Assembly: GCA_027020665.1 (NCBI GenBank)
Contig: JALUVJ010000014.1
Coordinates: 466-64,465 of the forward strand
Length of the DNA stretch: 64,000 bases
Origin: Nitrospira sp.
GTDB taxonomy: Bacteria > Nitrospirota > Nitrospiria > SBBL01 > JAADHI01
Direction: 5' to 3'
Position numbers and translations under genes: made by a program. The notes beneath the pieces are model-generated. The model did not search any database and was not told the origin of the DNA. It saw only the letters and a list, made by a program, of their open reading frames with translations. Each line of letters opens with the position of its first letter. Position 1 is the stretch's first letter. This document shows, one piece after another, positions 9,073 through 55,848 of this stretch.

Positions 9073-12249
<3,177 letters not shown>

Positions 12250-24491: not shown

Positions 24492-25775
24492 ATGAGTCAT
24501 CACCCAAGCGAACATCGCAGCAATCCCGAATATTACACGCCGATTTACAATATGGCCCTCGCGCAATTTGAGCAAGCGGCCGACAAACTCAATCTCGACC
24601 CGAATTTGCGCAAACGTTTCACCGATCCGAAACGCGCCTTGATGGTGAATATCCCCATCCGTATGGATGATAAGCGGGTCGAAGTGTTTCACGGCTATCG
24701 CGTGCATCACGATACGACCTTAGGCCCTTCGAAGGGTGGAATTCGCTTTCATCCCGATGTTACGCTGGGCGAAGTTTCGGCGCTGGCGATGTGGATGACC
24801 TGGAAGTGCGCTCTCATGGGATTGCCTTTTGGTGGCGCAAAGGGGGGCGTGCGTTGTGACCCGCATGCGCTTTCGCGGAATGAATTGCAGCGATTGACCC
24901 GGAGGTTTACGGCGGAAATCATTCAATTCATCGGCCCGGAAATCGATGTGCCCGCGCCCGATATTGGCACCAATGAACAGGTCATGGCCTGGATGATGGA
25001 TACCTACAGTCAATTTAAGGGCTATTCGATTCAAGAGATTGTAACCGGAAAACCCGTGAACATCGGCGGGTCTTTGGGGCGGATTGAGGCGACCGGTCGG
25101 GGTGTTGTGTACTGTATTTTGGAGGCGATGCGGCATTTGAATATGCAGCCCGAAGGCAGAAGTATTGTTATTCAGGGTTTTGGAAATGTCGGTTATCATA
25201 CTGCGCACATCCTTCATAAAAAGGGTTGCCGCATCATAGCGGTCAGCGATATCAAGTCAGGCATTTGCAACGGCAAGGGCATTAATGTCCCGGCCTTGAG
25301 ACAACATGTCGAAAAACACAAATACATCGAAGGGTTTCCCGGAGGCGATGAAATCAGCAACGCCGATCTTTTGGAATTGTCTTGCGATGTCTTGGTGCCT
25401 GCCGCGCTTTCCGGGCAGATTACCCATGAAAATGCCGACCGTATTTCCTGTAAAATATTGGCCGAGGCGGCAAACGGCCCCACCACGCTTGACGCCGATA
25501 AAATCCTTCAAGACAAAGGACTCTTTGTCATCCCCGATGTGCTTGCCAATGCGGGCGGTGTGACCGTTTCATATTTTGAGTGGGTGCAGGGTCTACAGAA
25601 CTTTTTTTGGAAAGAAGAGGAAATCAACGAACGTCTGCACGACATTGTCACCGTGGCTTTCCAAAACGTCCTTCGTATTGCCTTGTCGGAAAAAGTGGAT
25701 ATGCGTCTGGCGGCCCTCATGCTTTCCGTGCGAAAAATTACAGAAGCCAAGCTTGCCCGCGGGCTGTTTCCTTAA
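24492..25775 (+). CDS. gdhA: Glutamate dehydrogenase (Glu/Leu/Phe/Val dehydrogenase family)
   Basis: 427 aa with KGGIRFHP, PFGGAKGG and the Rossmann motif IQGFGNVG. Confidence 0.9.
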   Translation: MSHHPSEHRSNPEYYTPIYNMALAQFEQAADKLNLDPNLRKRFTDPKRALMVNIPIRMDDKRVEVFHGYRVHHDTTLGPSKGGIRFHPDVTLGEVSALAMWMTWKCALMGLPFGGAKGGVRCDPHALSRNELQRLTRRFTAEIIQFIGPEIDVPAPDIGTNEQVMAWMMDTYSQFKGYSIQEIVTGKPVNIGGSLGRIEATGRGVVYCILEAMRHLNMQPEGRSIVIQGFGNVGYHTAHILHKKGCRIIAVSDIKSGICNGKGINVPALRQHVEKHKYIEGFPGGDEISNADLLELSCDVLVPAALSGQITHENADRISCKILAEAANGPTTLDADKILQDKGLFVIPDVLANAGGVTVSYFEWVQGLQNFFWKEEEINERLHDIVTVAFQNVLRIALSEKVDMRLAALMLSVRKITEAKLARGLFP

Positions 25776-25825
25776 AAACGGCGGCCTCTCCTTTCTGCAC
25801 ATAATAAATCCGCTGGACGCAATGT

Positions 25826-26755
25826 TTAATGATTGTGTTCATGCCCGTGTGATTCGCAGGCCCTTCCTGAGATGGAACAGACCTTTTCGCCTTGCTCGGT
25901 TTTGAGTCCGGTGATGTAGTTTCGCCAGGCTTCGAAGTGATCCACCAGAAATCGGTACGCGGCGGGATTTTTTGCAGGCAGTGCATTTCCGGCGCTTGCG
26001 GTTTCGATGAATTTAAATCGTGTTTTTAAAAAAGCGGCGATGTTTTTCTCAATTTCCGAAAGCGGCGGGAGTGTTTCTTGAGGTTCTTTTTCGTCTCGCG
26101 CATTGATCCATTTTAAAAAGGCTTCAAGCCGGGTCGTGTGGGAACTGTCAGCGCCCCGGTTTTTTTGATAGCGCTCTTCGATGATTTTCAGTGCGTTTGG
26201 GTCTCCGATGCAATCGGCCCGCGCAAGCAGCAGACTGCCGAGGCAAGGCGAAGGGGGGATTGTTGTTTCGGAAGATTGTTTGTTTTGTTCTAAATCGCTA
26301 AAACGAAAAGCCGCATCGGCTGCGATGGAAAGACAGCAATCGGCTGTTGTCATGTCTGCCGCCGCGATGAAGGTGGAAATCTCCGCCGGGGTGACAAAGG
26401 GGATGTGGCCGGGCAGAATAAGGGCCGGTTCGGAAAGCATGTTCAGACCGTCCGGCTGTATTGCTCTTTTTCGGCTTTGTGCATCCGCAAAAGATAAACT
26501 TTCACGCAGGGTCGCTTGTTCCTCAATAACGACGATCTTCTTTTGAAAGGGGATCTCAAAAATCACGCTTTCAATAGCGCGCATAATTTCTCTGGGGGGG
26601 CCGATGACAACCGTTTGATCGATCTGAGTCACGCGGTCTAAGGCCATGAGTACATAAATGAGCAGCGGACGCCCCGCAAGCGGCAGGAAGGCGTGATTCA
26701 TGCCGTTAATTTGTCGGTCCGGGGTTTGCGTGGCGGCAAGGAGAAAGGCATTCAT
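25826..26755 (-). CDS. Hypothetical protein with degenerate MobA-like nucleotidyltransferase fold; C-terminal His-rich tail
   Basis: 309 aa. The N-terminus FLLAAT...NHAFLPLAGRPLLIYVLMAL and LILPGHIPFVTPAEISTFI resemble the NTP_transf_3 layout. However, the GG/Arg-Lys loop and the Asp of the D-x-P motif appear substituted. The start overlaps the upstream gene stop (ATGA). Function is unknown. Confidence 0.45.
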   Translation of the reverse strand: MNAFLLAATQTPDRQINGMNHAFLPLAGRPLLIYVLMALDRVTQIDQTVVIGPPREIMRAIESVIFEIPFQKKIVVIEEQATLRESLSFADAQSRKRAIQPDGLNMLSEPALILPGHIPFVTPAEISTFIAAADMTTADCCLSIAADAAFRFSDLEQNKQSSETTIPPSPCLGSLLLARADCIGDPNALKIIEERYQKNRGADSSHTTRLEAFLKWINARDEKEPQETLPPLSEIEKNIAAFLKTRFKFIETASAGNALPAKNPAAYRFLVDHFEAWRNYITGLKTEQGEKVCSISGRACESHGHEHNH

Positions 26756-27879
26756 AAGGCGTGTGTCTTCAAAATGACGGTGCGGCGCGCATCGGTGAGT
26801 GTGTTGAGCGGGTTTTTAAATCCTTTGAATCGGATGATGTCGCGAATGAAGGGCACGTGCTTAAGGGCTTGGCCGTTTTTTTGTTTCCAGGCGGAGGAAC
26901 ATTGCGCGACTGCTTCTTTTAAGACCGTAATGAGCGGACCCTCCACCGTCCAGCCCTTACAGTCTTTAAAGGCGCATCGAAAATGCACGGTGCGTTCGAG
27001 ATCGGTTTTGCGGTAGAGAACGGCCTTGAGTTCATCTGCTGAAATCGTAGGCGGCATGTCGATGATAATGTCGAGTTTCATGCCTTCGGAATCGCTTTTT
27101 AAGATGAAAGGCGGACAGGACTCCGTTGCGTGTAGGGCCTTAATTTGGGTTAAGACGGTATTGAGCAGTACGCCGTGTGGCAGGGAGCGGACGGCAATAC
27201 GGGTGCGACCGCCGTCAATGACGGTGTCGATTTGACCGCGCAAGGTGAGGGGGCCTTCTCCTTTTTCGTAGAAGGCGTATATGGCATCAAAGCCGCCCAT
27301 AACGCCGCCGGGACCGAAATCGGGGCCGGGCATGATTTCCATGAGTTCCCGCAGGGAGAGTTGAGGATCCTGACGCAGGTGTTCCATGCCCATCCAAAGT
27401 TCTTCGAGATTGTGAGAAGGGATTTCAGTATCGTCCGAAAGCACGACCCCGTTCAAAAGTGAGACAGGCAACACGGGATTTTTGTGGAAGGGAAAAAGGA
27501 TGTTTGCATATTTGGAGCGCCGAACTTCGACCGATTCCGGTCCGAAGGGGTGTTCGTCGTGGAAATCGCCGATCATGCCTTTGAGATCAAGCAGGGGGTA
27601 GCGATTTCGCCACGGCAGGCCCATCTTTAGCAGCACACGATAGGCGTAACCGACGCTTTCGGGATCGTAATGCTCGATTGAAGCTACGCCGCAGTTCAGT
27701 TCCTCACATTCCTCTTCGAAGGTTTCATCATCCATGTTCCAATCTTCGGTTGCGATGACCGCGAGCACATCCTTTGCGTTGATAAAGACTCTTTCATTTT
27801 CAGCCAAGGCGCGGCAGACTTCGGTCAAACGCAATTGCAAAGGGTTGAGTCCGGTCAAAAAATCGGCTTGTTCCATCAT
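26752..27879 (-). CDS. GyrA/ParC N-terminal-domain homologue (winged-helix + tower only), catalytic Tyr absent
   Basis: 375 aa. IPSHNLEEL, MEIMPGPDFGPGGV, RTRIAVRSLPHGVLLNTVL and SDSEGMKLDIIID align by eye to the GyrA motifs NIPPHNL, IPGPDFPTGG, R-x-IIVTEIPYQVNK and RDESD-GMRIVIE. YDPES replaces YHPHGD, and E-S sits where the R-Y active-site pair aligns. There is no coiled-coil C-gate and no beta-pinwheel CTD. Confidence 0.6.
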   Translation of the reverse strand: MMEQADFLTGLNPLQLRLTEVCRALAENERVFINAKDVLAVIATEDWNMDDETFEEECEELNCGVASIEHYDPESVGYAYRVLLKMGLPWRNRYPLLDLKGMIGDFHDEHPFGPESVEVRRSKYANILFPFHKNPVLPVSLLNGVVLSDDTEIPSHNLEELWMGMEHLRQDPQLSLRELMEIMPGPDFGPGGVMGGFDAIYAFYEKGEGPLTLRGQIDTVIDGGRTRIAVRSLPHGVLLNTVLTQIKALHATESCPPFILKSDSEGMKLDIIIDMPPTISADELKAVLYRKTDLERTVHFRCAFKDCKGWTVEGPLITVLKEAVAQCSSAWKQKNGQALKHVPFIRDIIRFKGFKNPLNTLTDARRTVILKTHAL

Positions 27880-27959
27880 TTCTCCAAAAATTCACCTGTC
27901 TGAAAAATCCGGTTATTTTATAATGATGCGAATGCCCTTGTCACCTTCCAAATACCCCC

Positions 27960-27985
27960 CCCCAAATCAGTCGCTGATTTTGGGG
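27960..27985. repeat. Palindrome CCCCAAATCAG-TCG-CTGATTTTGGGG
   Basis: 11/12-bp inverted repeat read directly from the sequence. It is preceded by a C9 run (27955-27963). It lies in the divergent intergenic region between the gyrA-like gene and dus. A related palindrome is at 43270-43292. Confidence 0.5.
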
Positions 27986-28010
27986 CCTGCGGTTCGAGGT
28001 TGCTGTTTCA

Positions 28011-28091
28011 CCGTCTATTTACAAAATTTTCAACCTAGAAGCCGGGAATTTTTGCCTCGAAAAAACAATTCATGACTTAATGAGCGCTTCC
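28011..28091 (+). repeat. ~80-nt intergenic repeat, copy A (upstream of dus)
   Basis: CCGTCTATTTACAAAATTTT...GCCGGGAATTTTTGCCTCGAAAAAACAATTCATGACTTAATGAGCGCTTCC matches the reverse complement of 61219-61298. By eye there are about 8 mismatches and 1-2 single-nt gaps. Confidence 0.6.
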
Positions 28092-28143
28092 TTATATAAT
28101 GGCCTAAAATCAAATATTGTCTTATTTTTAAAGGGTTTTTCGC

Positions 28144-29337
28144 ATGACGGCGGTGAGTGAACATTTTTGGTCTCGACAGGCGAAACCGATTATCGGCCTC
28201 TCCCCGATGGACGGAGTGACCGATCCCTGTTTTCGGCGGATCATGGCGATGCACGGACGGCCCGATATGATTATGACGGAATTTTTGAGTGTTGAGGGCA
28301 TTTGCCACGGTGCGCGGAATGCGCTCATGGGTTTGGCCTATCATGCTGTCGAACGCCCTGTGATCGCACAGCTTTACGGGCCTGATCCGGAAACTTTTTT
28401 TCATGTTGCGCAACTGGTCTGTGAATTGGGTTATGACGGTTTGGACCTCAACATGGGTTGTCCCAGCAAGAAGGTGGCCGCTTTGGGAGCGGGTGCGGCC
28501 CTCATTCAAGATCCGCCACGCGCCAAAGCGATTGTGCGGGCCTGCCGGAGGGGCATTGCACACTGGACGAGCGGTGCGCCGCTATCGATTTGTGAAACTT
28601 ATCCCGTTGTGGGCGATTGGCTGGCGCAAGTCCGGAAGAATTTTCCTGAGATTGAGGTGCAGGAACGAAAGCCGATTCCCGTTTCGGTTAAAACACGCAT
28701 CGGTGTGGGTGAAGTTGTGATCGAAGATTGGATTGCGCACTTGCTTGAAGCGGCGCCTGCCGTAATTTCCATCCACGGTCGCACCCTGCGGCAAGGTTAT
28801 CGCGGGGAGGCCAATTGGGACATGATTGCAAAAGCCGTCGCATGTGCGGCAGGTTCCGGGACATTCATTTTGGGAAATGGGGATATTCAGTCGATGCGTG
28901 AAGTCATTTCACGGGTTCGGCAGACGGGAGTGGATGGTGTTTTGATCGGCCGGGCCGCCGTGGGCAATCCTTGGATTTTTCATAAAAAAGAGCTGGTGCG
29001 TGCGCTTTTAAACGCCCCGGATGAAATTTCGGAAACACAGTTTGCCCGAATTTCGGAGAAAAACATCAGCCCGCGCGAGCGTTTTTTTGTCGCTTTGCAA
29101 CATGCGCGTTTATATGAAGCCATGCACGGGGAACAATTTTTTAATGGCATGCGAAAACATCTGGGATTGTATTGCCGCGATTTTCCCGGCGCACGACTGT
29201 TGCGCTCAAAAATGGTACGCACAAATAACGTGGCTGAGGTAGAAATACTCATTAAAGAACATCTGCTCGAAAATCAGGATCAAAGCGAATCTCAAGGTAA
29301 AAATCCTTCCCGCACGGATATGCAAGTTGCGTCCTAA
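28144..29337 (+). CDS. dus: tRNA-dihydrouridine synthase family protein
   Basis: 397 aa with SPMDGVTD, DLNMGCPSKKV and ISIHGRT motifs of Dus TIM-barrel flavoenzymes. Confidence 0.8.
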   Translation: MTAVSEHFWSRQAKPIIGLSPMDGVTDPCFRRIMAMHGRPDMIMTEFLSVEGICHGARNALMGLAYHAVERPVIAQLYGPDPETFFHVAQLVCELGYDGLDLNMGCPSKKVAALGAGAALIQDPPRAKAIVRACRRGIAHWTSGAPLSICETYPVVGDWLAQVRKNFPEIEVQERKPIPVSVKTRIGVGEVVIEDWIAHLLEAAPAVISIHGRTLRQGYRGEANWDMIAKAVACAAGSGTFILGNGDIQSMREVISRVRQTGVDGVLIGRAAVGNPWIFHKKELVRALLNAPDEISETQFARISEKNISPRERFFVALQHARLYEAMHGEQFFNGMRKHLGLYCRDFPGARLLRSKMVRTNNVAEVEILIKEHLLENQDQSESQGKNPSRTDMQVAS

Positions 29338-29962
29338 GCTGATTCTGGCATCGACTTCACCGCGCCGACGTGAAATCTTTGCGCGTCTTGGGCTGCCCTT
29401 TGAGTCCATTGCGCCGACATTTGAAGAGCTTTCGGATGATGTCCGAGATGTCAAAGAAGAGACCCTGTTTTTTGCGGAAAGCAAGGCACGTTCGGTAATG
29501 CATGGTTTAAAAAATCACATTGTAATCGGCAGCGATACCCTCATTGCGTATCAAGGTCAAAAGATCGGAAAACCGGAAAATGCCGAAGCGGCAAAGACCA
29601 TATTAAAAATGTTGCAAGGGCGGTCTCATGAGATTTACACGGCGGTTTTTGTGATGGATGTTTCTGGTCATACACAGGCATCTTCACTTGAAAAAGTAAA
29701 GGTCCGCATGCATGAAATGAGTGAAGCCGAAATTGAAGACTATGTGGCCACAAAAGAGCCCTTGGACAAAGCCGGGGCTTATGCCGTTCAGGGTATCGGC
29801 AGTCGTTTTATCCGTGAATTAAAGGGCGACCGGCTTGCGGCCATTGGTTTGCCATTGGGGGTTTTGGCCCGCTTTTTGTCCGAGCGCGGTTTTACCCTGC
29901 CTGAAAATCTGCTTAAAATTGAAAGGATTCGCATTGACGGATTTAAGCCTGAGACAGACTGA
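29327..29962 (+). CDS. maf: Maf-like nucleoside triphosphate pyrophosphatase
   Basis: 211 aa with LILASTSPRRREI, IGSDT and AGAYAVQG motifs. The TTG start overlaps the dus end by 11 nt. Confidence 0.85.
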   Translation: MRPKLILASTSPRRREIFARLGLPFESIAPTFEELSDDVRDVKEETLFFAESKARSVMHGLKNHIVIGSDTLIAYQGQKIGKPENAEAAKTILKMLQGRSHEIYTAVFVMDVSGHTQASSLEKVKVRMHEMSEAEIEDYVATKEPLDKAGAYAVQGIGSRFIRELKGDRLAAIGLPLGVLARFLSERGFTLPENLLKIERIRIDGFKPETD

Positions 29963-30587
29963 AATAAAGGCCTTGATTACGGCGGCTTCCCGTCATCAGT
30001 CGGCGGGCATCTTTAATCCCTGGTCTCAGCTTTCCGAAATGGATTTGAACCCCGATGGGTATTTGCTGAGGCAAGAACGGCTTTATCAACATTGGTCGGC
30101 AGAAAATCCTCAGTTGGTTTTAATCGGGGAGGCGGCGGGTTATCAGGGTTGCCGTTTCAGCGGCATTCCTTTTACTTCCGAGCGTCTTATTTTAGAAGGA
30201 AAGATTCCAAGGATTTCAGGACATTTGGCCGAACGCATTTCATCACGGAAACGGCCTTGGAGCGAACCTTCGGCGACGATTGTTTGGAAAACACTGGATG
30301 AATTAGGCATCGCGAAATCCGCAGTGTTTTTTAATGCCGTGCCCTGGCATCCCGAAGGGGAGAGGGGGCCTTTGTCGAATCGCACACCCAAGACCCCTGA
30401 GAAAAAAGAAGGCGAACCCTATTTGAAGTGTTTTCTGGCCGTGTTCCCCAACGTCCCCGTGGCGGCGCTCGGCAATATTGCGAGTGCGGCTTTATCTGCC
30501 TTAGGTATCGCCCATCGGCAAGTGAGGCATCCGGCTTATGGCGGTGCGATGAAGTTTCGCGAAGGTTTGCGCACATTGCTCCGTTAA
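29934..30587 (+). CDS. Uracil-DNA glycosylase superfamily protein
   Basis: Has the LIGEAAGYQGCRFSGIPFTSE (motif A-like) and VRHPAYGG (motif B-like) patterns. I prefer TTG 29934 (GAAAGGA RBS) over the ORF-track start at 29835. It overlaps the maf end. Confidence 0.55.
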   Translation: MTDLSLRQTEIKALITAASRHQSAGIFNPWSQLSEMDLNPDGYLLRQERLYQHWSAENPQLVLIGEAAGYQGCRFSGIPFTSERLILEGKIPRISGHLAERISSRKRPWSEPSATIVWKTLDELGIAKSAVFFNAVPWHPEGERGPLSNRTPKTPEKKEGEPYLKCFLAVFPNVPVAALGNIASAALSALGIAHRQVRHPAYGGAMKFREGLRTLLR

Positions 30588-30609
30588 TGAAGAAAGGATT
30601 AATGAGGCC

Positions 30610-31854
30610 GTGAAGTTTGAACGATACCCCATATCCGAAGCCATTCGAAAAAACCTGGATCGGCTTGGTTTTGTTCGCACGACGGACATCCAATACAAGG
30701 CCATCCCGCCGATTTTACGGGGAGAGGATGTGTTTGCCACGGCACAAACGGGTACGGGTAAAACGGCGGCTTTTGCCATTCCCGTCATCCAAAAGATTCT
30801 CACCGGAAAAAGCAAAAATCATGACAGAAACGGACTGAAGTGTATTGTCCTGGTTCCGACGCACGAACTGGCCTTGCAGATTTGTGAGGTTTTTACCTGT
30901 CTTGCAAAGCAGACCAAGGTGAAGGCCACGGCGATTTACGGCGGGGTTGAACAAGATCCCCAAATTAAAAAACTACAGGCCGGCATTGATGTACTCATTG
31001 CAACACCGGGCCGCATGTTTGATCTCATTCATCAGGGTTATCTTAATTTAGATCAAATCAATACTTTTGTTTTGGATGAAGCGGATCTCATGCTGGATCT
31101 GGGTTTTATCGAAGACATCAAATCGATCAAGAAGAAGCTTACGCGTCCCCATCAAACCTTGTTTTTTTCGGCAACCATTAATAAGGCCATTAAAAATTTG
31201 GCATATTCACAGGTTGGGAATTCGGCGATTCGTATTCGGATTTCTCCTGAAGACATCGTTTCAAGAAATGTGACGCACTATGTGCTTTTTGTGGAAATGA
31301 AGGATAAACGGTTTTTTTTACAGCGTTTTATTACAGATCACCCTAAGCGCAAAATGATTGTGTTTGTCCGAACGCGTGTGCGTGCGGAAAGAGTCATGAA
31401 AGCGATGGCGCGGGTTGATCTTGAGTGTCTTGCGATTCACGGGGAGAAAACCCAGGAAGAACGCGCAGAGGTCATGAAGCAATTTAAAGCAGGGGCATGC
31501 AATATCTTGATTGCGACGGACATTACGGCCCGGGGGGTTGATATCCCGAATATAAATTATATCGTCAATTATGATTTGCCCGAGAAAGCCGAAAACTATG
31601 TGCATCGTGTAGGAAGGACGGGCCGGGGGATGAAAAAAGGGGAGTCCGTTTCATTTTGCAGCAAGGAGGAAAAACCGCGGCTTGAGGAGATTCAGGCATT
31701 TTTAGAAAAACCGATAGAGGTGATCCCGCTCGGAAAAAAAGGTTATGCCTTCACCCTCGAACACCCTAAGGCCGAAAGCACTTTGCAGGAAGTTGTCTCG
31801 GAAATACGGGATTGGGAAGCACACAAAAAGAAGAAAAGAAAGAGAAAGTCTTAA
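30610..31854 (+). CDS. DEAD-box ATP-dependent RNA helicase (RhlE-like) with Lys-rich tail
   Basis: 414 aa with AQTGTGKT, PTHELA, VLDEAD, SAT and HRVGRTGR motifs. Confidence 0.9.
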   Translation: MKFERYPISEAIRKNLDRLGFVRTTDIQYKAIPPILRGEDVFATAQTGTGKTAAFAIPVIQKILTGKSKNHDRNGLKCIVLVPTHELALQICEVFTCLAKQTKVKATAIYGGVEQDPQIKKLQAGIDVLIATPGRMFDLIHQGYLNLDQINTFVLDEADLMLDLGFIEDIKSIKKKLTRPHQTLFFSATINKAIKNLAYSQVGNSAIRIRISPEDIVSRNVTHYVLFVEMKDKRFFLQRFITDHPKRKMIVFVRTRVRAERVMKAMARVDLECLAIHGEKTQEERAEVMKQFKAGACNILIATDITARGVDIPNINYIVNYDLPEKAENYVHRVGRTGRGMKKGESVSFCSKEEKPRLEEIQAFLEKPIEVIPLGKKGYAFTLEHPKAESTLQEVVSEIRDWEAHKKKKRKRKS

Positions 31855-36266: not shown

Positions 36267-38618
36267 ATGAAAAATCGTCCGCAGGCCCGTGTCGTTCACC
36301 TCTTGTTGACGACCGTATTTTTAGGTCTTGCCGCATTTCATCTCAGCAGGAAGAGTGAACCGCAAGAAAAGCCCCCCTCGGCAGAACAGCGTCTAGACCC
36401 GGATACCGTAAAGGTGCATTACCGGGAAGCGGTGAAGCCGATCCTCGAATCGCGATGTATCGTGTGTCACGGCTGTTACGACGCACCCTGTCAACTGAAT
36501 CTCAGCGCGCATGAGGGCATCGTGCGCGGGGCAAACAAGGCACGGGTCTACAACCCGAGCCGCTTGTTGGCTGTGGAACCCACACGCCTGTTTCTTGATG
36601 CGCGCGGCTTAAGTGAATGGCGGAAGCTGGATTTTTTCCCGGTCTTAAATGAAGGATCCCGGGGGAAAGAAACAGAGCGCAATGCCGGATTGATTCAAAA
36701 GATGTTGCAATTGAAGCGGCAGCATCCGCTGCCGCGGGAAACGCCCTTGCCCCCCGGTTTTGATTTTTCACTGGACCGTGAACAGTATTGCCCGAAAGCA
36801 GATGAGTTTGAGGATTTTGCAAAGGAAAAACCCCTCTGGGGCATGCCGTACGGACTGCCTGCCTTGACGGACCGTGAATACCGTACCTTGTCGCGTTGGT
36901 TGGAAAAAGGGGCCTTGCATGAGCCGCCCGGGCCGGTCTCCCCCGGGATACGTTCGGCCGTTATTAAATGGGAAGGGTTTTTAAACGGCAACACGCCCAA
37001 AGAGCAACTGATGAGCCGCTATCTGTACGAACATCTCTTTCTGGCTCACTTTTATTTTGGAGCGCACAATACAAAGGCGTTTTTTCGTTTGGTCCGATCC
37101 AAAACCCCGCCAGGGGAAGCCATCGATCTCGTGGTCACACGGCGCCCCTATGACGACCCGGAAATCGACCGGGTTTATTATCGTCTTCAAGCGGTTCATT
37201 CCACAATTCTGGCCAAGACACACATGCCCTATCGCCTCGATTCGCAACGGATGGCCCGTTACCGGGAACTCTTTCTCGTCCCTGCGTACACAGTTTCGCG
37301 CTTGCCCTCTTACGAGGCCGAGCGCTCCGCAAATCCCTTTGCGACGTTTCAGTCCATCCCGGCAAAATCGCGTTACATGTTTCTTTTGGATGAGGCCGCC
37401 TTTTCTATCGGGAACTTCATCAAAGGCCCCGTGTGCCGCGGGCAAGTGGCCCTCAGCGTGATTAATGAGCGCTTTTGGATTTTCTTTGTCAACCCGGAGA
37501 ATCCGGCTCTCGCGCACGGAGACGAATTTCTTGCCAAGGAACTCGAAAACCTCAGAATGCCGACAGAGAAGCAAAGCAATGCAACCGTCGTCTCCAACTG
37601 GTTTAAGTATTATAAATTGGAAAAAAAATATTTTGCCGCAAAAATTAACTACATCAAAGCGCATTTGCCGCAGGCAGAAGATATCTCACTCGACATTATT
37701 TGGGAGGGTTACGGAAAGAATGACAATGCGGCCCTCACCGTTTTCAGGCAGCTGGACAACGGAAGCATCGTCAAAGGTCTAATCGGAGACGAACCCAAAA
37801 CCGCCATCTTATTGGATTACCCCTTGCTGGAGCGTATCCATTACCTGCTCGTTGCGGGTTATGATATTTTCGGCAACATCGGACACCAACTCAATTCCCG
37901 TCTCTATATGGACTTTATGCGGATGGAGGGCGAGTTTAATTTTCTGATCCTGCTTCCTGAAAAAGAACGGGTCAAAACATGGAAACACTGGTATCGTAAG
38001 GCCCTGGGTACAGTGGAAGATCATATTTATGGCTACAACAAAGCACTCAATCGGCAAACGGGGATTCAATATAAAACAAACGATCCGAAGTCGGAATTAT
38101 TAGGTCTCTTAAAAACACGTCTTGCGCCGGTACTGAATCGGGATTATGAACTAAAAAGGGGCGAGAATGAAGAGATCGGCCAAGCACTGAAAAGACTGTC
38201 GCAAATCAAAGGCGCAGCAGCTTCTTTGTTGCCGCAATCTGCGGTTTTGTCCATCGCCGGTGAGCAGGATTTATTTTTTACGCTCATCCAAAACAGGGGG
38301 CTGGCCAATGTGTCCCATCTTTTTTTTGAGGACATGAGACGTTTGCCGGAAGAGGACAACTTAACCGTGGTCCGCGGTTTTGCGGCTGCGTATCCCAATG
38401 CTTTTTATCACATTCCGCCCTCGGAATTGGACGCTTTTGTTGATGCCGTAGCAGGGCTCCGCAGCGAGAGCGATTATCAAGACCTTTTGGACCGTTTTGG
38501 TATCCGGCGAAACGATCCTGATTTCTGGAAACACAGCGACATCCTCCATGCGGCCTATCAAAAAACGGCGCCCGTTGAGGCGGGTTTATTAGATTACAAT
38601 CGATTGGAAAATAGATGA
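36267..38618 (+). CDS. cti: Fatty acid cis/trans isomerase (CTI family, c-type haem protein)
   Basis: 783 aa with an N-terminal signal anchor. CIVCHGCYDAPCQLNLS contains the CXXCH haem motif in the context I remember from Pseudomonas Cti. The size matches. Confidence 0.75.
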   Translation: MKNRPQARVVHLLLTTVFLGLAAFHLSRKSEPQEKPPSAEQRLDPDTVKVHYREAVKPILESRCIVCHGCYDAPCQLNLSAHEGIVRGANKARVYNPSRLLAVEPTRLFLDARGLSEWRKLDFFPVLNEGSRGKETERNAGLIQKMLQLKRQHPLPRETPLPPGFDFSLDREQYCPKADEFEDFAKEKPLWGMPYGLPALTDREYRTLSRWLEKGALHEPPGPVSPGIRSAVIKWEGFLNGNTPKEQLMSRYLYEHLFLAHFYFGAHNTKAFFRLVRSKTPPGEAIDLVVTRRPYDDPEIDRVYYRLQAVHSTILAKTHMPYRLDSQRMARYRELFLVPAYTVSRLPSYEAERSANPFATFQSIPAKSRYMFLLDEAAFSIGNFIKGPVCRGQVALSVINERFWIFFVNPENPALAHGDEFLAKELENLRMPTEKQSNATVVSNWFKYYKLEKKYFAAKINYIKAHLPQAEDISLDIIWEGYGKNDNAALTVFRQLDNGSIVKGLIGDEPKTAILLDYPLLERIHYLLVAGYDIFGNIGHQLNSRLYMDFMRMEGEFNFLILLPEKERVKTWKHWYRKALGTVEDHIYGYNKALNRQTGIQYKTNDPKSELLGLLKTRLAPVLNRDYELKRGENEEIGQALKRLSQIKGAAASLLPQSAVLSIAGEQDLFFTLIQNRGLANVSHLFFEDMRRLPEEDNLTVVRGFAAAYPNAFYHIPPSELDAFVDAVAGLRSESDYQDLLDRFGIRRNDPDFWKHSDILHAAYQKTAPVEAGLLDYNRLENR

Positions 38619-52480: not shown

Positions 52481-53056
52481 TTACTTTTTCTCTTCCTGTT
52501 CAGGTTCTTCTTGCCGTGAAGAGGGGAAACGATAACGATATTGACTTACGACCTCTTCATCTTCGCCTTCTTGATTGTGGGCAACGAGATATCCCTTTGC
52601 TTCGCGGTGCAATTTTTCGCCGATATCGTAGAGCTTCGTTTTATCGAAAATCAGATCTCTTTTATTGATGGTTGAATATTCATACATCTTGGTCATGGCC
52701 AAGGCGTTGACCGGGCAGGCCTCAACACAAAACCCGCAGAACACACATTTTGTAATATCAATATCAAAAGAGCTGGCATATCGTCTGACGACATATCCGT
52801 CTTTTTCATCCACTTCACTCACAACGGTAATACAAGCAGATGGGCAGGCCGCACCGCAAAGATCGCAGCCGACACAACGTTCTTCCTGACTTTCCTCATA
52901 TCGTAAGAGGCACAGCGCACCCCGTTGCGTATTGGGGAGAGCTGTTTTTTCATGTGGATATTGAAGCGTTACCTCTTTTACGAAGTAGTGACTGAAAACC
53001 AGCTTCAAAGCCTTCACGATTTCCACAAAAAGGAAGTTGTAGAGAATTTTTCTCAC
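52481..53056 (-). CDS. nuoI: NADH-quinone oxidoreductase subunit I (2x[4Fe-4S]), with acidic C-terminal tail
   Basis: 191 aa with CVGCDLCGAACP and CVFCGFCVEACP. Confidence 0.9.
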   Translation of the reverse strand: MRKILYNFLFVEIVKALKLVFSHYFVKEVTLQYPHEKTALPNTQRGALCLLRYEESQEERCVGCDLCGAACPSACITVVSEVDEKDGYVVRRYASSFDIDITKCVFCGFCVEACPVNALAMTKMYEYSTINKRDLIFDKTKLYDIGEKLHREAKGYLVAHNQEGEDEEVVSQYRYRFPSSRQEEPEQEEKK

Positions 53057-55848
53057 GCCGCATCCTCTGCGGAGAGGTTTTTCGCCGCATTTTTTCCGGC
53101 GTCCTCCATCGTGTCTTCGGCAGCATCTTCGGGGGTAATCACTCTCAAATCGAGGGAAGCCGAGGGTTCCAGGGTGACCGCACCGGTTTTGAAATAAATA
53201 ACCTTGCTCTTTGCATCAATTTCGGTGGCCAAGAGGTCTTTCACGGGAGGATCATTAAAATGAACGGGATAGTGAACGAGTCCCTTGGGCAGTTCCGGTG
53301 TGATTTCGATTTGAACTTCGAGTTGTCCCAGGGGCGATTTAATATTGACGGAATCACCCGTTTGCAGGTTCCCCAAGGCTTCCGCATCGGCTTCGCTGAT
53401 GTGCAGGACGGCCTTGTCGTAAATTTTCATCAGCCCTTTGTCGCGTGTCGTGAGTTTCCCGGAGTGATAAAGCACTTGTTGCAAGGAAAGCGTCATGGTA
53501 TTTTTCCGCGTATCCTGCGCCGGAGCAGCATAACGCTCCGGAATATCTTCGGCGAAGTTTTCAGGGAGATCGCTCGTCTCATGTACTTTGTCTTGTGCGT
53601 AATAGCCCGGCACCATCTGAGAAATTTCCCGGCGAATTTCTTCCACCGAATGATATTGAACGGGATGGCCGAGATGTTTGGATAAATCGGTTAAGATTTT
53701 CCAATCGGGCCGGGCCTCGCCTCTGGGATCAAAGGCTTCCGTGACACGATTGACTGCGCCCATAATATTGGTGTAAGTGCCTTCTTTTTCCGCAAAAGTC
53801 GCGGCGGGCAGGATGACATCGGCGATTTCTGCCGTTTCGCTCATGAAGGGGTCTTGGCAAACAATGAAGTCGATTTTTTCCAATGCCTCCCGTACCTTCA
53901 TCGAAGCGGGCAGGGTGCCGAGCGGGTTTTCACCCACCAGATAGAGCGCCTTGATTTCACCGCGATGCGCGGCTTCAATGATTTCGGAGAGGCTCAATCC
54001 GGGTGAGCCGCCCGTTGATTCGGGTAAAGACGCATGCCAAGCGTTTGCGAATTGTCGGCGCGCGTCTTCAGCGGCATAAGAAACTTGGCCCGGCAGAAAT
54101 TCGGGCACCGCGCCCATATCGACCGCGCCCTGTTCGTTGTTTTCCTCACAAACCGGGAGGATGCCTGCGCCTTCTTTTCTGAAAAGCCCGGTCAAAAGGG
54201 CAAGATCGATCAAACGCCGCACATTTTGATACGCGCCTTTTTCCGAAACGATGTCTTCACCCCAAAGCAGCACGCCACGTTTCGACTGCGCAAGCAGTAT
54301 TGCGGCTTCTTCTATTTTTTCCCATTCCAATCCGGTTTTTTCCGAAACCCTTGTCTCTGAAATCCGCGCGACCGCCTCTTTCAAGGCAGCGTAGGCTTCA
54401 GATTGTTTTTCGATAAAATCAGGGTCGGTCAAGCCTTTTGCAATCACCGCCTTAACCAGTCCCTGAATCAAGTCTCCTTCGGAATGCGGGGCAATCTGAA
54501 GGGGGTGCGTGGCGAGTTTCATGATTTTTGTTTCCGTGTCATCGGCGACAAGCAGTTTTCCTGCAAATTCGCTCATGGACGCCTTGACCCGAAGTGCGGT
54601 AATCGGGTTGGTTTCCGTCAGGTTTGAACCGATCATGAGAATTGCATCGGAAAGCGCGAGTTGTTTTTCATCGACGGTTGCGCCTCCGATATTTACGGTT
54701 TCGCGCAGGGCCAGCACAGAGTTCATGTGGCCGTAGCGTGCGGCGGTGTCGATGTTGTTGGTTTCCAAGATTGAACGCATTAGTCTCTGAAAAAGATACA
54801 CGCTTTCGTTTGTACACCGCCCGCTGATGAGTCCTGCAATCGCCTGTCCGCCGTGTGTCGCTTTGATGTCGTTCAAGCGTTTACCGATGTCGATCAGTGT
54901 TTTAAACCAAGGTGCTTCTACAAATTGCCCTTCGGTTTTCACAAGAGGTTTCGAAAGCCGTGCGTCACTCATCACATATTGAAAGCCAAACCGGCCGCGT
55001 ACACAGATGCCGCCGTGCCCTTCGCCGGGTTCTACGTCAAAACCCCACTTGGATTCGTAGGAGAGTTCTGAGGTGACCACCATAATGTCACGCGCATTTG
55101 TTTCAAGTGTGATCGAGCAGCCGTCCGAGCAGAAGCTGCAGGTGGTTTCCGTCTTTTTGAGTTGCCAGGGTTTAAAGGTGTATTTCGAAAACTTGCTGAC
55201 AATGGCGCCGACCGGACAGACGGCCAGACAGTCGCCGCAGAATTCGCAATAGAGGGTTTCTCCGCCGTGTGCGCCGACGTGCTTCTGTTTGTCTTTTTTA
55301 TAAAAACAGAGGGCGTCGACCAGTTGCACTTCCTTACAGATGTTGATGCACTGGCCGCAGAGGATGCAGCGTTCCATGTTGAAGTCGAGCACCAGGCTGC
55401 GCGTATCTTCCGGGATTTGTTTCCGTTTACCTTCTTTGATGTCATAAACTTCGAGGTCGTAGGCCATGTCCTGCAATTCGCACTGGCCGTCTTTGTCACA
55501 GACGGGACAATCCAGGGGATGGGTTTTGAGGTGTTTTTCAACGGCACCTTTTCTGGCCTCGACTATTTTATCCGTCCCGGTTGAGACGACCATGCCTTCG
55601 GTCACCTTGGCCGTGCAAGCACGGACATTATGTTTTTTGCCCTCGACTTCAACCAAGCAGAGGCCGCAGGAGCCAAAAGGGGAAAAGCTGTAATGGTAAC
55701 ACATGGCCGGGAGTTGTGTGCCGGTCCATTTTACCGCGTTGAAGAGGGAGGAGCCCTCTTCGGCGGTTACGACTTGACCGTCGATGGTCAACTCGACCAT
55801 CTTTTTGACCGCATCGGGTGCAGCACTTTGTTTGCCGACGCTACTCAT
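53053..55848 (-). CDS. nuoG: NADH-quinone oxidoreductase subunit G-like (2Fe-2S, His-ligated and Cys 4Fe-4S clusters, molybdopterin-oxidoreductase fold)
   Basis: 931 aa with CYHYSFSPFGSCGLCLVEV...C, HPLDCPVCDKDGQCELQ, CILCGQCINIC, CEFCGDCLAVCPVGA and CSFCSDGC. Confidence 0.8.
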   Translation of the reverse strand: MSSVGKQSAAPDAVKKMVELTIDGQVVTAEEGSSLFNAVKWTGTQLPAMCYHYSFSPFGSCGLCLVEVEGKKHNVRACTAKVTEGMVVSTGTDKIVEARKGAVEKHLKTHPLDCPVCDKDGQCELQDMAYDLEVYDIKEGKRKQIPEDTRSLVLDFNMERCILCGQCINICKEVQLVDALCFYKKDKQKHVGAHGGETLYCEFCGDCLAVCPVGAIVSKFSKYTFKPWQLKKTETTCSFCSDGCSITLETNARDIMVVTSELSYESKWGFDVEPGEGHGGICVRGRFGFQYVMSDARLSKPLVKTEGQFVEAPWFKTLIDIGKRLNDIKATHGGQAIAGLISGRCTNESVYLFQRLMRSILETNNIDTAARYGHMNSVLALRETVNIGGATVDEKQLALSDAILMIGSNLTETNPITALRVKASMSEFAGKLLVADDTETKIMKLATHPLQIAPHSEGDLIQGLVKAVIAKGLTDPDFIEKQSEAYAALKEAVARISETRVSEKTGLEWEKIEEAAILLAQSKRGVLLWGEDIVSEKGAYQNVRRLIDLALLTGLFRKEGAGILPVCEENNEQGAVDMGAVPEFLPGQVSYAAEDARRQFANAWHASLPESTGGSPGLSLSEIIEAAHRGEIKALYLVGENPLGTLPASMKVREALEKIDFIVCQDPFMSETAEIADVILPAATFAEKEGTYTNIMGAVNRVTEAFDPRGEARPDWKILTDLSKHLGHPVQYHSVEEIRREISQMVPGYYAQDKVHETSDLPENFAEDIPERYAAPAQDTRKNTMTLSLQQVLYHSGKLTTRDKGLMKIYDKAVLHISEADAEALGNLQTGDSVNIKSPLGQLEVQIEITPELPKGLVHYPVHFNDPPVKDLLATEIDAKSKVIYFKTGAVTLEPSASLDLRVITPEDAAEDTMEDAGKNAAKNLSAEDAA

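Follow-up and report, generated by a model that had tools for sequence, protein, structure and literature searches.

A predicted catalytically inactive, head-only GyrA/ParC paralogue in Nitrospirota, and its nucleotidyltransferase-like partner in one subclade

In a 64,000-nucleotide stretch of contig JALUVJ010000014.1 of Nitrospira sp. (assembly GCA_027020665.1; the whole stretch is referred to as the window), we found a gene encoding a 375-residue protein related to the A subunit of type IIA topoisomerases, tentatively referred to as mini-GyrA. This protein is almost certainly a GyrA/ParC paralogue that has been reduced to the head, has lost catalysis and is nevertheless kept by selection. 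Overlapping its stop codon is the start of a second gene, whose 309-residue product is referred to as the partner. Both open reading frames (ORFs), on the minus strand and joined by an ATGA overlap, had been described in a preceding sequence-only reading, and each of the peptides it quoted (IPSHNLEEL, MEIMPGPDFGPGGV, RTRIAVRSLPHGV, SDSEGMKLDIIID, YDPES, LLAATQTPDRQ, PGHIPF, and the tail CESHGHEHNH) is present. Positions of all features are collected in Table 1.

The similarity to the GyrA/ParC N-terminal region noted in that reading holds in sequence, profile and structure comparisons alike. Mini-GyrA matches Pfam PF00521 at 71.4 bits (cut-off 31; E 8.5e-20; profile positions 130-319), and phmmer against PDB sequences returns ParC and GyrA N-terminal domains with E down to 2.6e-21. 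A family profile, built from an alignment of 34 mini-GyrA members, was compared by hhalign with an alignment headed by E. coli GyrA, giving a probability of 100 and an E of 1.1e-39 over 296 columns, in which residues 8-328 of the window protein correspond to E. coli residues 35-356. An AlphaFold2 (AF2) model made from the same 34-member alignment reaches a pLDDT of 87.7 and a pTM of 0.84, and its top Foldseek matches in PDB are exclusively GyrA/ParC breakage-reunion domains (E ~1e-21, query-normalised TM 0.70, ~350 of the 375 residues aligned). The winged helix and tower that make up the GyrA/ParC N-terminal domain (GyrA59, ParC55; PF00521) are both present, as are its core motifs RYP, G-x-x-G-x-x-D, LLNG, IPxHNL and PGPDF and the terminal D-x-RRT-x-I. 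NCBIfam models, which describe equivalogs and subfamilies with cut-offs of 629-902 bits, score mini-GyrA at 57-99 bits; the best score is 98.5 bits (PRK05561, cut-off 654), and the GyrA model PRK05560 gives 79.6 bits (cut-off 902). ParC-type models come out slightly above GyrA-type models (98.5 vs. 79.6 and 76.4 vs. 67.3 bits), and the best profile matches of the family mix proteins with and without a GyrA box. These comparisons show that mini-GyrA is a type IIA topoisomerase A-subunit head and a lineage-specific paralogue of GyrA/ParC.

While the fold is shared, mini-GyrA lacks five of the six testable features that define a functional type IIA A subunit, scores above the NCBIfam cut-offs being one of the five. 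The GyrA/ParC features without an equivalent are the R-Y-T triad, the YHPHGD motif, the N-terminal arm, the coiled-coil C-gate, and the beta-pinwheel C-terminal domain. In both the phmmer and the profile alignments, E115-S116-V117 of mini-GyrA lies under R121-Y122-T123 of E. coli GyrA, and Y71-D-P-E-S-V76 corresponds to Y77-H-P-H-G-D82, with D and E at the positions of H78 and H80 in the profile alignment; the two replacements proposed earlier by eye (R-Y by E-S, YHPHGD by YDPES) are thereby placed at exact residues. Further upstream, K42, H45 and R46 of E. coli GyrA map to N12, Q15 and L16, and R47 is retained as R17. For gyrase, both the function of the RYT triad and the kinking of DNA by Ile174 have been described (PMC11164529); the window protein has a Leu at the Ile174 position, on a hairpin three residues shorter than that of GyrA. 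The N-terminal arm with helix alpha1 (E. coli GyrA 1-34, including the invariant Y24, I29 and R32) has no counterpart, since the alignment begins at GyrA residue 35, equivalent to window residue 5-8. A search of mini-GyrA, which ends at residue 375, for the beta-pinwheel model PF03989 gave no match, and its AF2 model contains no long coiled coil that could form a C-gate.

The sequence-only reading had mini-GyrA stopping before the C-gate. The C-gate is indeed absent, but simple truncation does not account for its loss, and the N-terminal arm has been lost as well. About 75 residues are kept after the tower, the last of which are D363-ARRTVIL, where D363 and R365 are invariant in the family; from tower residue ~328 to this terminal RRT motif there are ~40 residues, vs. 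~160 in E. coli GyrA. A sub-profile made from the last 46 residues falls on the D-x-RRT-x-I of dozens of true GyrA/ParC, each single match being weak and the location consistent, and hhalign restricted to E. coli GyrA 331-524 finds its best match at residues 511-522 (EQFGDKRRTEIT), opposite window residues 359-370 (E 0.0023). A conserved linker of ~30 residues (C327, W331, P343, GGYKNPL) sits where the C-gate was. Because the terminal RRT motif is retained, the C-gate (~150 residues) has been excised by an internal deletion rather than removed by truncation of the end. With the triad reading E-S-V, YHPHGD reading YDPESV, the C-gate excised, and the N-terminal arm and beta-pinwheel gone, mini-GyrA is predicted to be incapable of DNA cleavage or strand-passage gating. 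We thus agree with the earlier statement that it cannot be a functional topoisomerase subunit, the catalytic dyad, the C-gate and the beta-pinwheel all being missing.

Mini-GyrA belongs to a small family with a narrow distribution. A homologue search yielded 35 clusters at 90% identity, 43-99% identical, all of which are 364-392 residues long apart from one short sequence of 308 residues, and the full-length relatives number ~40 in total. When 1.84 billion representative proteins were searched exhaustively with a profile, five full-length representatives at 405-612 bits came up, together with fragments; below 405 bits there is a gap down to 140 bits or less, where ordinary full-length type IIA topoisomerases begin. 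A pattern scan of GTDB species genomes found at least six loci, labelled Candidatus Manganitrophaceae, Nitrospiria or Nitrospirota, and the next among the matches listed are true ParC/GyrA at no more than 31% identity. Metagenome contigs added at least eight more loci. All taxonomically named relatives among the matches listed are Candidatus Manganitrophaceae (Nitrospirota; Nitrospiria; Candidatus Troglogloeales) or other Nitrospirota metagenome-assembled genomes. Since the proteins carry the label "hypothetical protein" or "DNA gyrase subunit A" in their sources, we note that mini-GyrA genes should not be annotated or counted as gyrA or parC.

A separate protein, P0163 (535 residues, from a single 5.9-kb Logan contig), has a phosphoribosyltransferase-like N-terminal domain with a degenerate motif fused to a GyrA head that lacks the C-gate, keeps the Tyr (AIYTE) and ends in GDKRRTAI. 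It was considered as a "Rosetta stone" fusion and dropped, being a singleton on one short contig with ordinary GyrA (~40% identity) as its nearest relatives.

Within the family, the column of Arg121 is occupied by E, D, N, A, S or G and never by R (34 aligned proteins and extra loci), while the column of Tyr122 holds S, Y or G in the 34 aligned members and also L or Q in further relatives. The sequence-only reading had singled out a Tyr placed at the catalytic position by rigorous alignment as one finding that would count against it. The window protein has none there, but about a third of the family members do (GPEYVELR), always without the preceding Arg. In a rough neighbour-joining (NJ) tree, rooted with true GyrA/ParC and without support values, the family is monophyletic on a long stem, Tyr remains in scattered deep lineages, and at least four independent Tyr replacements follow a single loss of the Arg. 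Such a pattern is expected if a single event removed catalysis along with the Arg, leaving the Tyr to drift afterwards; the varied Tyr column argues for relaxed constraint rather than retained catalysis. We considered whether mini-GyrA may still be an active, unconventional cleavage subunit that works with an unlinked Toprim protein, at least in the relatives that keep the Tyr. That third of the family is the point in favor of this idea, which we regard as very improbable: the preceding Arg is absent throughout, the Tyr has repeatedly given way to S, L, Q or G (Ser in the window), H78/H80 are gone along with the C-gate and the N-terminal arm, and no Toprim gene was found in any locus searched.

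The loss of catalytic residues and of whole domains would also fit a decaying gyrA or parC pseudogene, or an annotation artefact, that came to lie next to the partner by accident. This explanation, to which we attach next to no weight, is refuted by the selection and conservation data. The alignment of 34 full-length relatives contains 39 invariant and 61 nearly invariant columns, and residues 86-122, the wing/catalytic-loop segment, are among the most conserved stretches. For mini-GyrA, dN/dS is 0.04-0.21 (Nei-Gojobori, orthologue pairs whose dS is not saturated); the partner gives 0.15-0.23. The length of mini-GyrA stays within the narrow range given above over 43-99% identity, the AF2 fold is confident, and both the promoter-like site and the ATGA overlap are conserved. 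Mini-GyrA is therefore best seen as a maintained gene that is under purifying selection and putatively expressed.

The side of the head that faces DNA in GyrA has been rebuilt. An extra helix and an acidic helix, which are found in mini-GyrA only when compared with GyrA/ParC, stand in place of the basic alpha3/YHPHGD region of GyrA, between helix alpha2 and the recognition helix (Table 1). The net charge of residues 35-75 is -13 in the window protein and -4 to -15 across the family, vs. +4 for E. coli GyrA 35-82, and the whole protein has an isoelectric point (pI) of 5.4 and a net charge of -13. One option offered by the sequence-only reading, a DNA-binding scaffold, is weakened by this acidification of the DNA-facing winged-helix surface. 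A related explanation is an architectural (nucleoid-associated) protein that binds or bends DNA with the winged helix and tower and does not cleave it. Its fold is that of the head that binds the G-segment, R17 (GyrA R47) is kept, the kinking position of Ile174 is hydrophobic (Leu in 30 of the 34), and in the window clade the C-terminal segment is basic, with a charge of +9 in the window protein. We nevertheless consider it unlikely, given the charge of the alpha3/alpha4 face, the replacement of K42, R46, H78, H80, R121 and T123, the shortened Ile174 hairpin, and the low pI and negative charge of the whole protein; moreover, a monomer without a C-gate would reach just half of a G-segment site.

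Turning to the partner, the sequence-only reading recognized a MobA-like layout with substituted motifs, and this description proved accurate. The match to PF12804 (NTP_transf_3) is marginal (28.5 bits vs. a cut-off of 27), the IspD model (PF01128) stays below its cut-off, and all NCBIfam matches fall far below theirs. The AF2 model is moderate (pLDDT 69.8), and its top Foldseek matches are IspD, TarI and GlmU-N (E 1e-11 to 1e-8, target-normalised TM 0.62-0.72); B. subtilis IspD, matched at E 1e-11, has the same alpha/beta fold. The partner thus has a GT-A-like alpha/beta nucleotidyltransferase fold. Its conserved F-L-P-L-x-G-R-P-L-L segment aligns to the PKQF...G-x-P of IspD/TarI/MobA-type enzymes, and the catalytic Lys of PKQF is replaced by Ser or Ala in the partner family. 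The glycine-rich A-A-G-x-G-x-R loop of nucleotidyltransferases (L-A-G-G in MobA) has become A-(N/A)-T-Q-x-P (LAATQTPDRQ in the window, FANTQxPxQQ across the family), so that the NTP-binding loop is gone; likewise, the VHD-x-ARP of IspD or D-x-P of MobA has become LPGHIP in the window and LPGNIP in most relatives, LPADIP being confined to locus L006. Unlike IspD/TarI/MobA-type nucleotidyltransferases, the partner has an extra C-terminal region with a C-x6-C pair and a His-rich tail; C293, G297 and C300 vary little or not at all across the partner family, while the tail occurs only in closer relatives. A word-indexed search found 15 relatives of the partner, and three more divergent ones lie beside the mini-GyrA gene in L001, L006 and L007. 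The partner is predicted to be an IspD/MobA-type fold with degenerated catalytic motifs.

The partner adjoins mini-GyrA in nine distinct loci (the window, L001, L006, L007, L008, L009, L089, L090 and L171). The ATGA junction is identical in eight of these; for L171, the gene coordinates give an overlap of 4 bp. The conserved overlap indicates that the two genes are translationally coupled, and their products probably form a complex; in the window's subclade, mini-GyrA is made in a fixed ratio with the partner and is probably bound to it. In 12 other loci with enough flanking sequence, the partner is absent downstream of mini-GyrA, and the genes found there instead encode EamA (L003, L005), a DEAD helicase (L004), OsmC (L011), or a convergent lipoyl synthase (L170). 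A PilZ-domain gene (Pfam) directly follows mini-GyrA in L012 and L013, and in L093, L094 and L096 that position is taken by an ORF of comparable size (183-223 residues; the L096 copy runs into the contig end) whose N-terminal sequence is similar. In the NJ tree, the partner-bearing genes form one clade nested in the Ser-bearing clade. We considered a tie between Ser at the Tyr column and the presence of the partner and gave it up, since L170 has the Ser and no partner; the Tyr-to-Ser change is therefore not linked to the partner. Hence the "two-gene module" and the "pseudo-enzyme pair" of the sequence-only reading apply to nine loci of one subclade, where the coupling stands, and do not extend to the rest of the family. 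From this distribution, the mini-GyrA gene is the conserved unit and the partner a later, clade-specific addition. Charge complementarity between the two proteins was also tried as a sign of contact and fails, both being acidic, and when positions specific to the clade were sought as possible marks of an interface with the partner, just five came up, all scattered.

The PilZ genes (of the cyclic di-GMP receptor type; L012 5093-5743 and L013 9145-9795) belong to the most divergent clade of mini-GyrA, in which the Tyr column is Leu or Gln. In the same clade, a gene of the uracil-DNA glycosylase (UDG) family lies divergently upstream of mini-GyrA (L013 6922-7656). A UBact/Pup-ligase-like/proteasome cluster lies directly upstream of mini-GyrA in L006 (1-5740) and L007 (1-3217). 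Across the family, the sole recurring neighbourhood is a loose proximity to Dus-Maf, UDG and DEAD genes, which may be inherited synteny only.

Mini-GyrA presumably acts by binding and not by catalysis. Our best overall explanation, with a probability of roughly 0.4, is a non-catalytic binding protein that serves as a decoy or modulator "A-head" for a Toprim protein. Docked one-to-one on a Toprim-type protein (GyrB or ParE, for example), mini-GyrA would either block that protein or tune it, and would leave G-segment DNA unbound; the identification of the target as a type IIA topoisomerase B subunit (GyrB/ParE, Toprim-type) is itself tentative. In the window's subclade, the pseudo-nucleotidyltransferase partner, with its C-x6-C pair and His-rich tail, would be co-made in the complex. 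We prefer a Toprim decoy because of the conserved loop/wing segment, the acidic helix in the groove, and the loss of the C-gate. In apo gyrase, the catalytic loop lies against the Toprim domain (PMC11164529). A decoy that sits on the B subunit and binds no DNA would be well served by an acidic helix filling its former DNA groove, and without a C-gate no closed A2 dimer can form.

Several observations weigh against a Toprim decoy. The GyrA N-terminal arm, which helps to hold GyrB, is absent from mini-GyrA. The old active-site pocket is acidic (H107-D108-E109, E115, E118) and should therefore repel the acidic metal site of Toprim, unless a metal bridges the two. A tblastn search of the window and 21 other family loci found no GyrB/ParE-like (Toprim) gene and no second GyrA-like gene. 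The neighbours differ between clades, so the genomic context gives no functional pointer, and the partner, found in one subclade only, cannot be essential to the core function.

The lack of a nearby topoisomerase B-subunit gene, the varying neighbours and the acidified DNA groove would equally suit a head fold that has been exapted to a role unrelated to topoisomerases, perhaps as a scaffold linked to metal or redox chemistry, to which the pseudo-nucleotidyltransferase would be an accessory specific to its clade. Consistent with this, C22, C58 and C327 are kept in nearly all family members, an H-D-E cluster is present at the former active site, and the partner contributes its Cys pair (C293, C300; 25856-25879) and His-rich tail. 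As neither Pfam nor NCBIfam turned up a known metal-binding motif, and the idea is unspecific and derived from residue identity alone, we regard such a scaffold as possible but doubtful.

No described system matches mini-GyrA or the pair, as the sequence-only reading had suspected: the NCBIfam scores are far below cut-offs, PADLOC returns nothing, and our literature searches for GyrA-like proteins without the catalytic Tyr, for a head-only GyrA/ParC paralogue, and for Manganitrophus together with gyrase found nothing relevant, although their coverage of journals was incomplete. Nonetheless, a Toprim decoy would have functional analogues. MfpA and Qnr are pentapeptide-repeat DNA mimics, and they and GyrI/SbmC are regulators of gyrase. 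Like these proteins and YacG, mini-GyrA is a small non-catalytic chromosomal protein that may modulate a type IIA topoisomerase by occupying its surface, and its acidic surface recalls DNA mimicry of the MfpA/Qnr type. YacG is a chromosomal gyrase regulator that reportedly occludes the DNA-binding site (PMC4083091). The resemblance of mini-GyrA to YacG, GyrI and Qnr is of the "may work like" kind, as there is no kinship in sequence or fold and mini-GyrA stems from the A subunit of the enzyme itself. In our Pfam scan, no YacG zinc finger, SbmC/GyrI-like domain or pentapeptide repeat was found; PF00521 was the only match of mini-GyrA, and PF12804/PF01128 the only ones of the partner.

A closer conceptual precedent comes from type IIB topoisomerases. 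The TOPOVIBL-like partners of Spo11 reportedly kept a topoisomerase subunit fold after the loss of enzymatic motifs and have a binding or regulatory role. As non-catalytic, topoisomerase-derived partners they are the nearest precedent for mini-GyrA, although they are type IIB rather than IIA, derive from a B-like rather than an A-like subunit, occur in another domain of life, and are not homologous to it.

Mini-GyrA could conceivably be the first bacterial "pseudo-topoisomerase", i.e., a catalytically dead, monomeric GyrA/ParC head that a whole lineage at order level, comprising manganese oxidisers and other Nitrospirota related to them, has kept. Its role would be that of a stoichiometric regulator or decoy, made by the cell itself, of type IIA topoisomerases or another Toprim enzyme, or else that of the core of a new non-DNA complex with the pseudo-nucleotidyltransferase; we offer this as a tentative proposal. 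If true, it would represent an unrecognised way of reusing the DNA-gate module of topoisomerases. Few bacterial proteins are as conserved and as well studied as the subunits of type IIA topoisomerases, which are also major drug targets, and mini-GyrA provides a natural experiment on the head domain acting alone. If it binds GyrB/ParE, the endogenous regulators of topoisomerases would gain a new class, and inhibitors that mimic the A subunit could be modelled on it; if it does not, it would be a clean case of a topoisomerase module exapted to a new role.

At the locus itself, the start codon of mini-GyrA is ambiguous by one codon. The near-identical public product P0001 has 374 residues, vs. 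375 for the ORF in the window, and because of this length and the spacing of the GGAG ribosome-binding site (Table 1), the second ATG may be the real start. Upstream, the sigma-70-type site of the window presumably acts as a promoter: (G/A)TGACAA(G)-N16-18-TTA(T/A)A(A/C)AAT recurs upstream of mini-GyrA orthologues in most loci, including L001, L003 and L006-L010. In the form GTGACAAG-N17-TTATAAAAT, this promoter-like arrangement is kept upstream of the gene in the window (27915-27960) and in most of L001, L003 and L006-L011, and a run of nine G lies at ~27952-27960 of the window, just upstream of the promoter-like site. No Rfam RNA family was found in 25500-28400 at E <= 1.

Table 1. Features of mini-GyrA and its partner in the window (positions in the 64,000-nucleotide stretch)
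Feature	Position	Strand	Basis
375-aa mini-GyrA gene (GyrA/ParC-like)	26752..27879	-	ORF reading, PF00521, phmmer, hhalign, AF2, Foldseek
Winged-helix (CAP-like) domain, aa 8-130 = E. coli GyrA 35-136	27490..27858	-	hhalign and AF2 secondary structure
Family-specific extra helix (aa 26-44) and acidic helix (aa 45-63, DWNMDDETFEEECEELNC)	27691..27804	-	19-residue insertion in hhalign; pLDDT 95-96
Codons E115-S116 at the position of E. coli GyrA catalytic Arg121-Tyr122	27532..27537	-	phmmer/hhalign alignment
Tower domain, aa 131-300, with LLNG, IPxHNL and PGPDF core motifs	26980..27489	-	Pfam, hhalign, family invariants
C-terminal segment, aa 301-375: start of helix alpha14, conserved linker, returning strand	26755..26979	-	Family invariants, AF2
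D363-A-R-R-T-V-I-L370, counterpart of the GDKRRTEI that closes the GyrA N-terminal domain	26770..26793	-	Sub-profile and hhalign
ATGA, mini-GyrA stop overlapping partner start	26752..26755	-	Read from sequence
309-aa partner gene, degenerate IspD/MobA-type nucleotidyltransferase fold	25826..26755	-	PF12804, AF2, Foldseek
Partner motif C293-SISG-RA-C300, then His-rich tail ESHGHEHNH	25829..25879	-	Partner family alignment
GGAG ribosome-binding site	27882..27885	-	2 nt before first ATG (27879), 5 nt before second ATG (27876)
Sigma-70-type promoter-like site GTGACA-18-TAAAAT	27915..27944	-	Consensus scan 10/12; ~35 nt upstream of mini-GyrA start codon

The pair is flanked by a divergent Dus-Maf-UDG-like-DEAD helicase cluster (28144-31854) and by a convergent glutamate dehydrogenase gene (24492-25775), and the GC content of the locus shows nothing anomalous. 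This setting bears on whether mini-GyrA and the partner belong to a mobile element or an anti-phage defence system, an idea raised by the general knowledge that pseudo-enzyme pairs occur in defence islands. Neither protein matches PADLOC at E <= 0.1, PHROGs gives only generic topo II, and the viral structure matches are ordinary topo II/gyrase subunits (TM no higher than 0.50, target-normalised) with no head-only analogue among them. Since the synteny is conserved and of housekeeping type (Dus-Maf, gdh, CBS, acyl-CoA synthetase), without a GC anomaly, we consider such an origin highly unlikely.

Two ORFs of the flanking cluster have uncertain starts. The UDG-superfamily-like ORF (29835-30587, plus strand; a weak PF03167 match of 27.3 bits) overlaps, as listed, the end of the Maf gene (29327-29962) by ~128 bp, and its true start is probably further downstream. 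The best-scoring Pfam stretch of the Dus (tRNA dihydrouridine synthase) ORF (28144-29337, plus strand, 397 aa) covers residues 171-377 only; either the N-terminal region of the protein is unusually long or the ORF as listed begins too far upstream. The window contains four ORFs of at least 600 aa, none of which is GyrB-like or a second GyrA-like gene. Elsewhere in the window we noted genes for a fatty-acid cis/trans isomerase (36267-38618, plus strand; PF06934, 866 bits), a NuoG-like molybdopterin oxidoreductase subunit adjoining a Nuo/Mrp-type antiporter subunit (53053-55848, minus strand), and an AcrB-type RND (resistance-nodulation-division) pump (9076-12249, plus strand).

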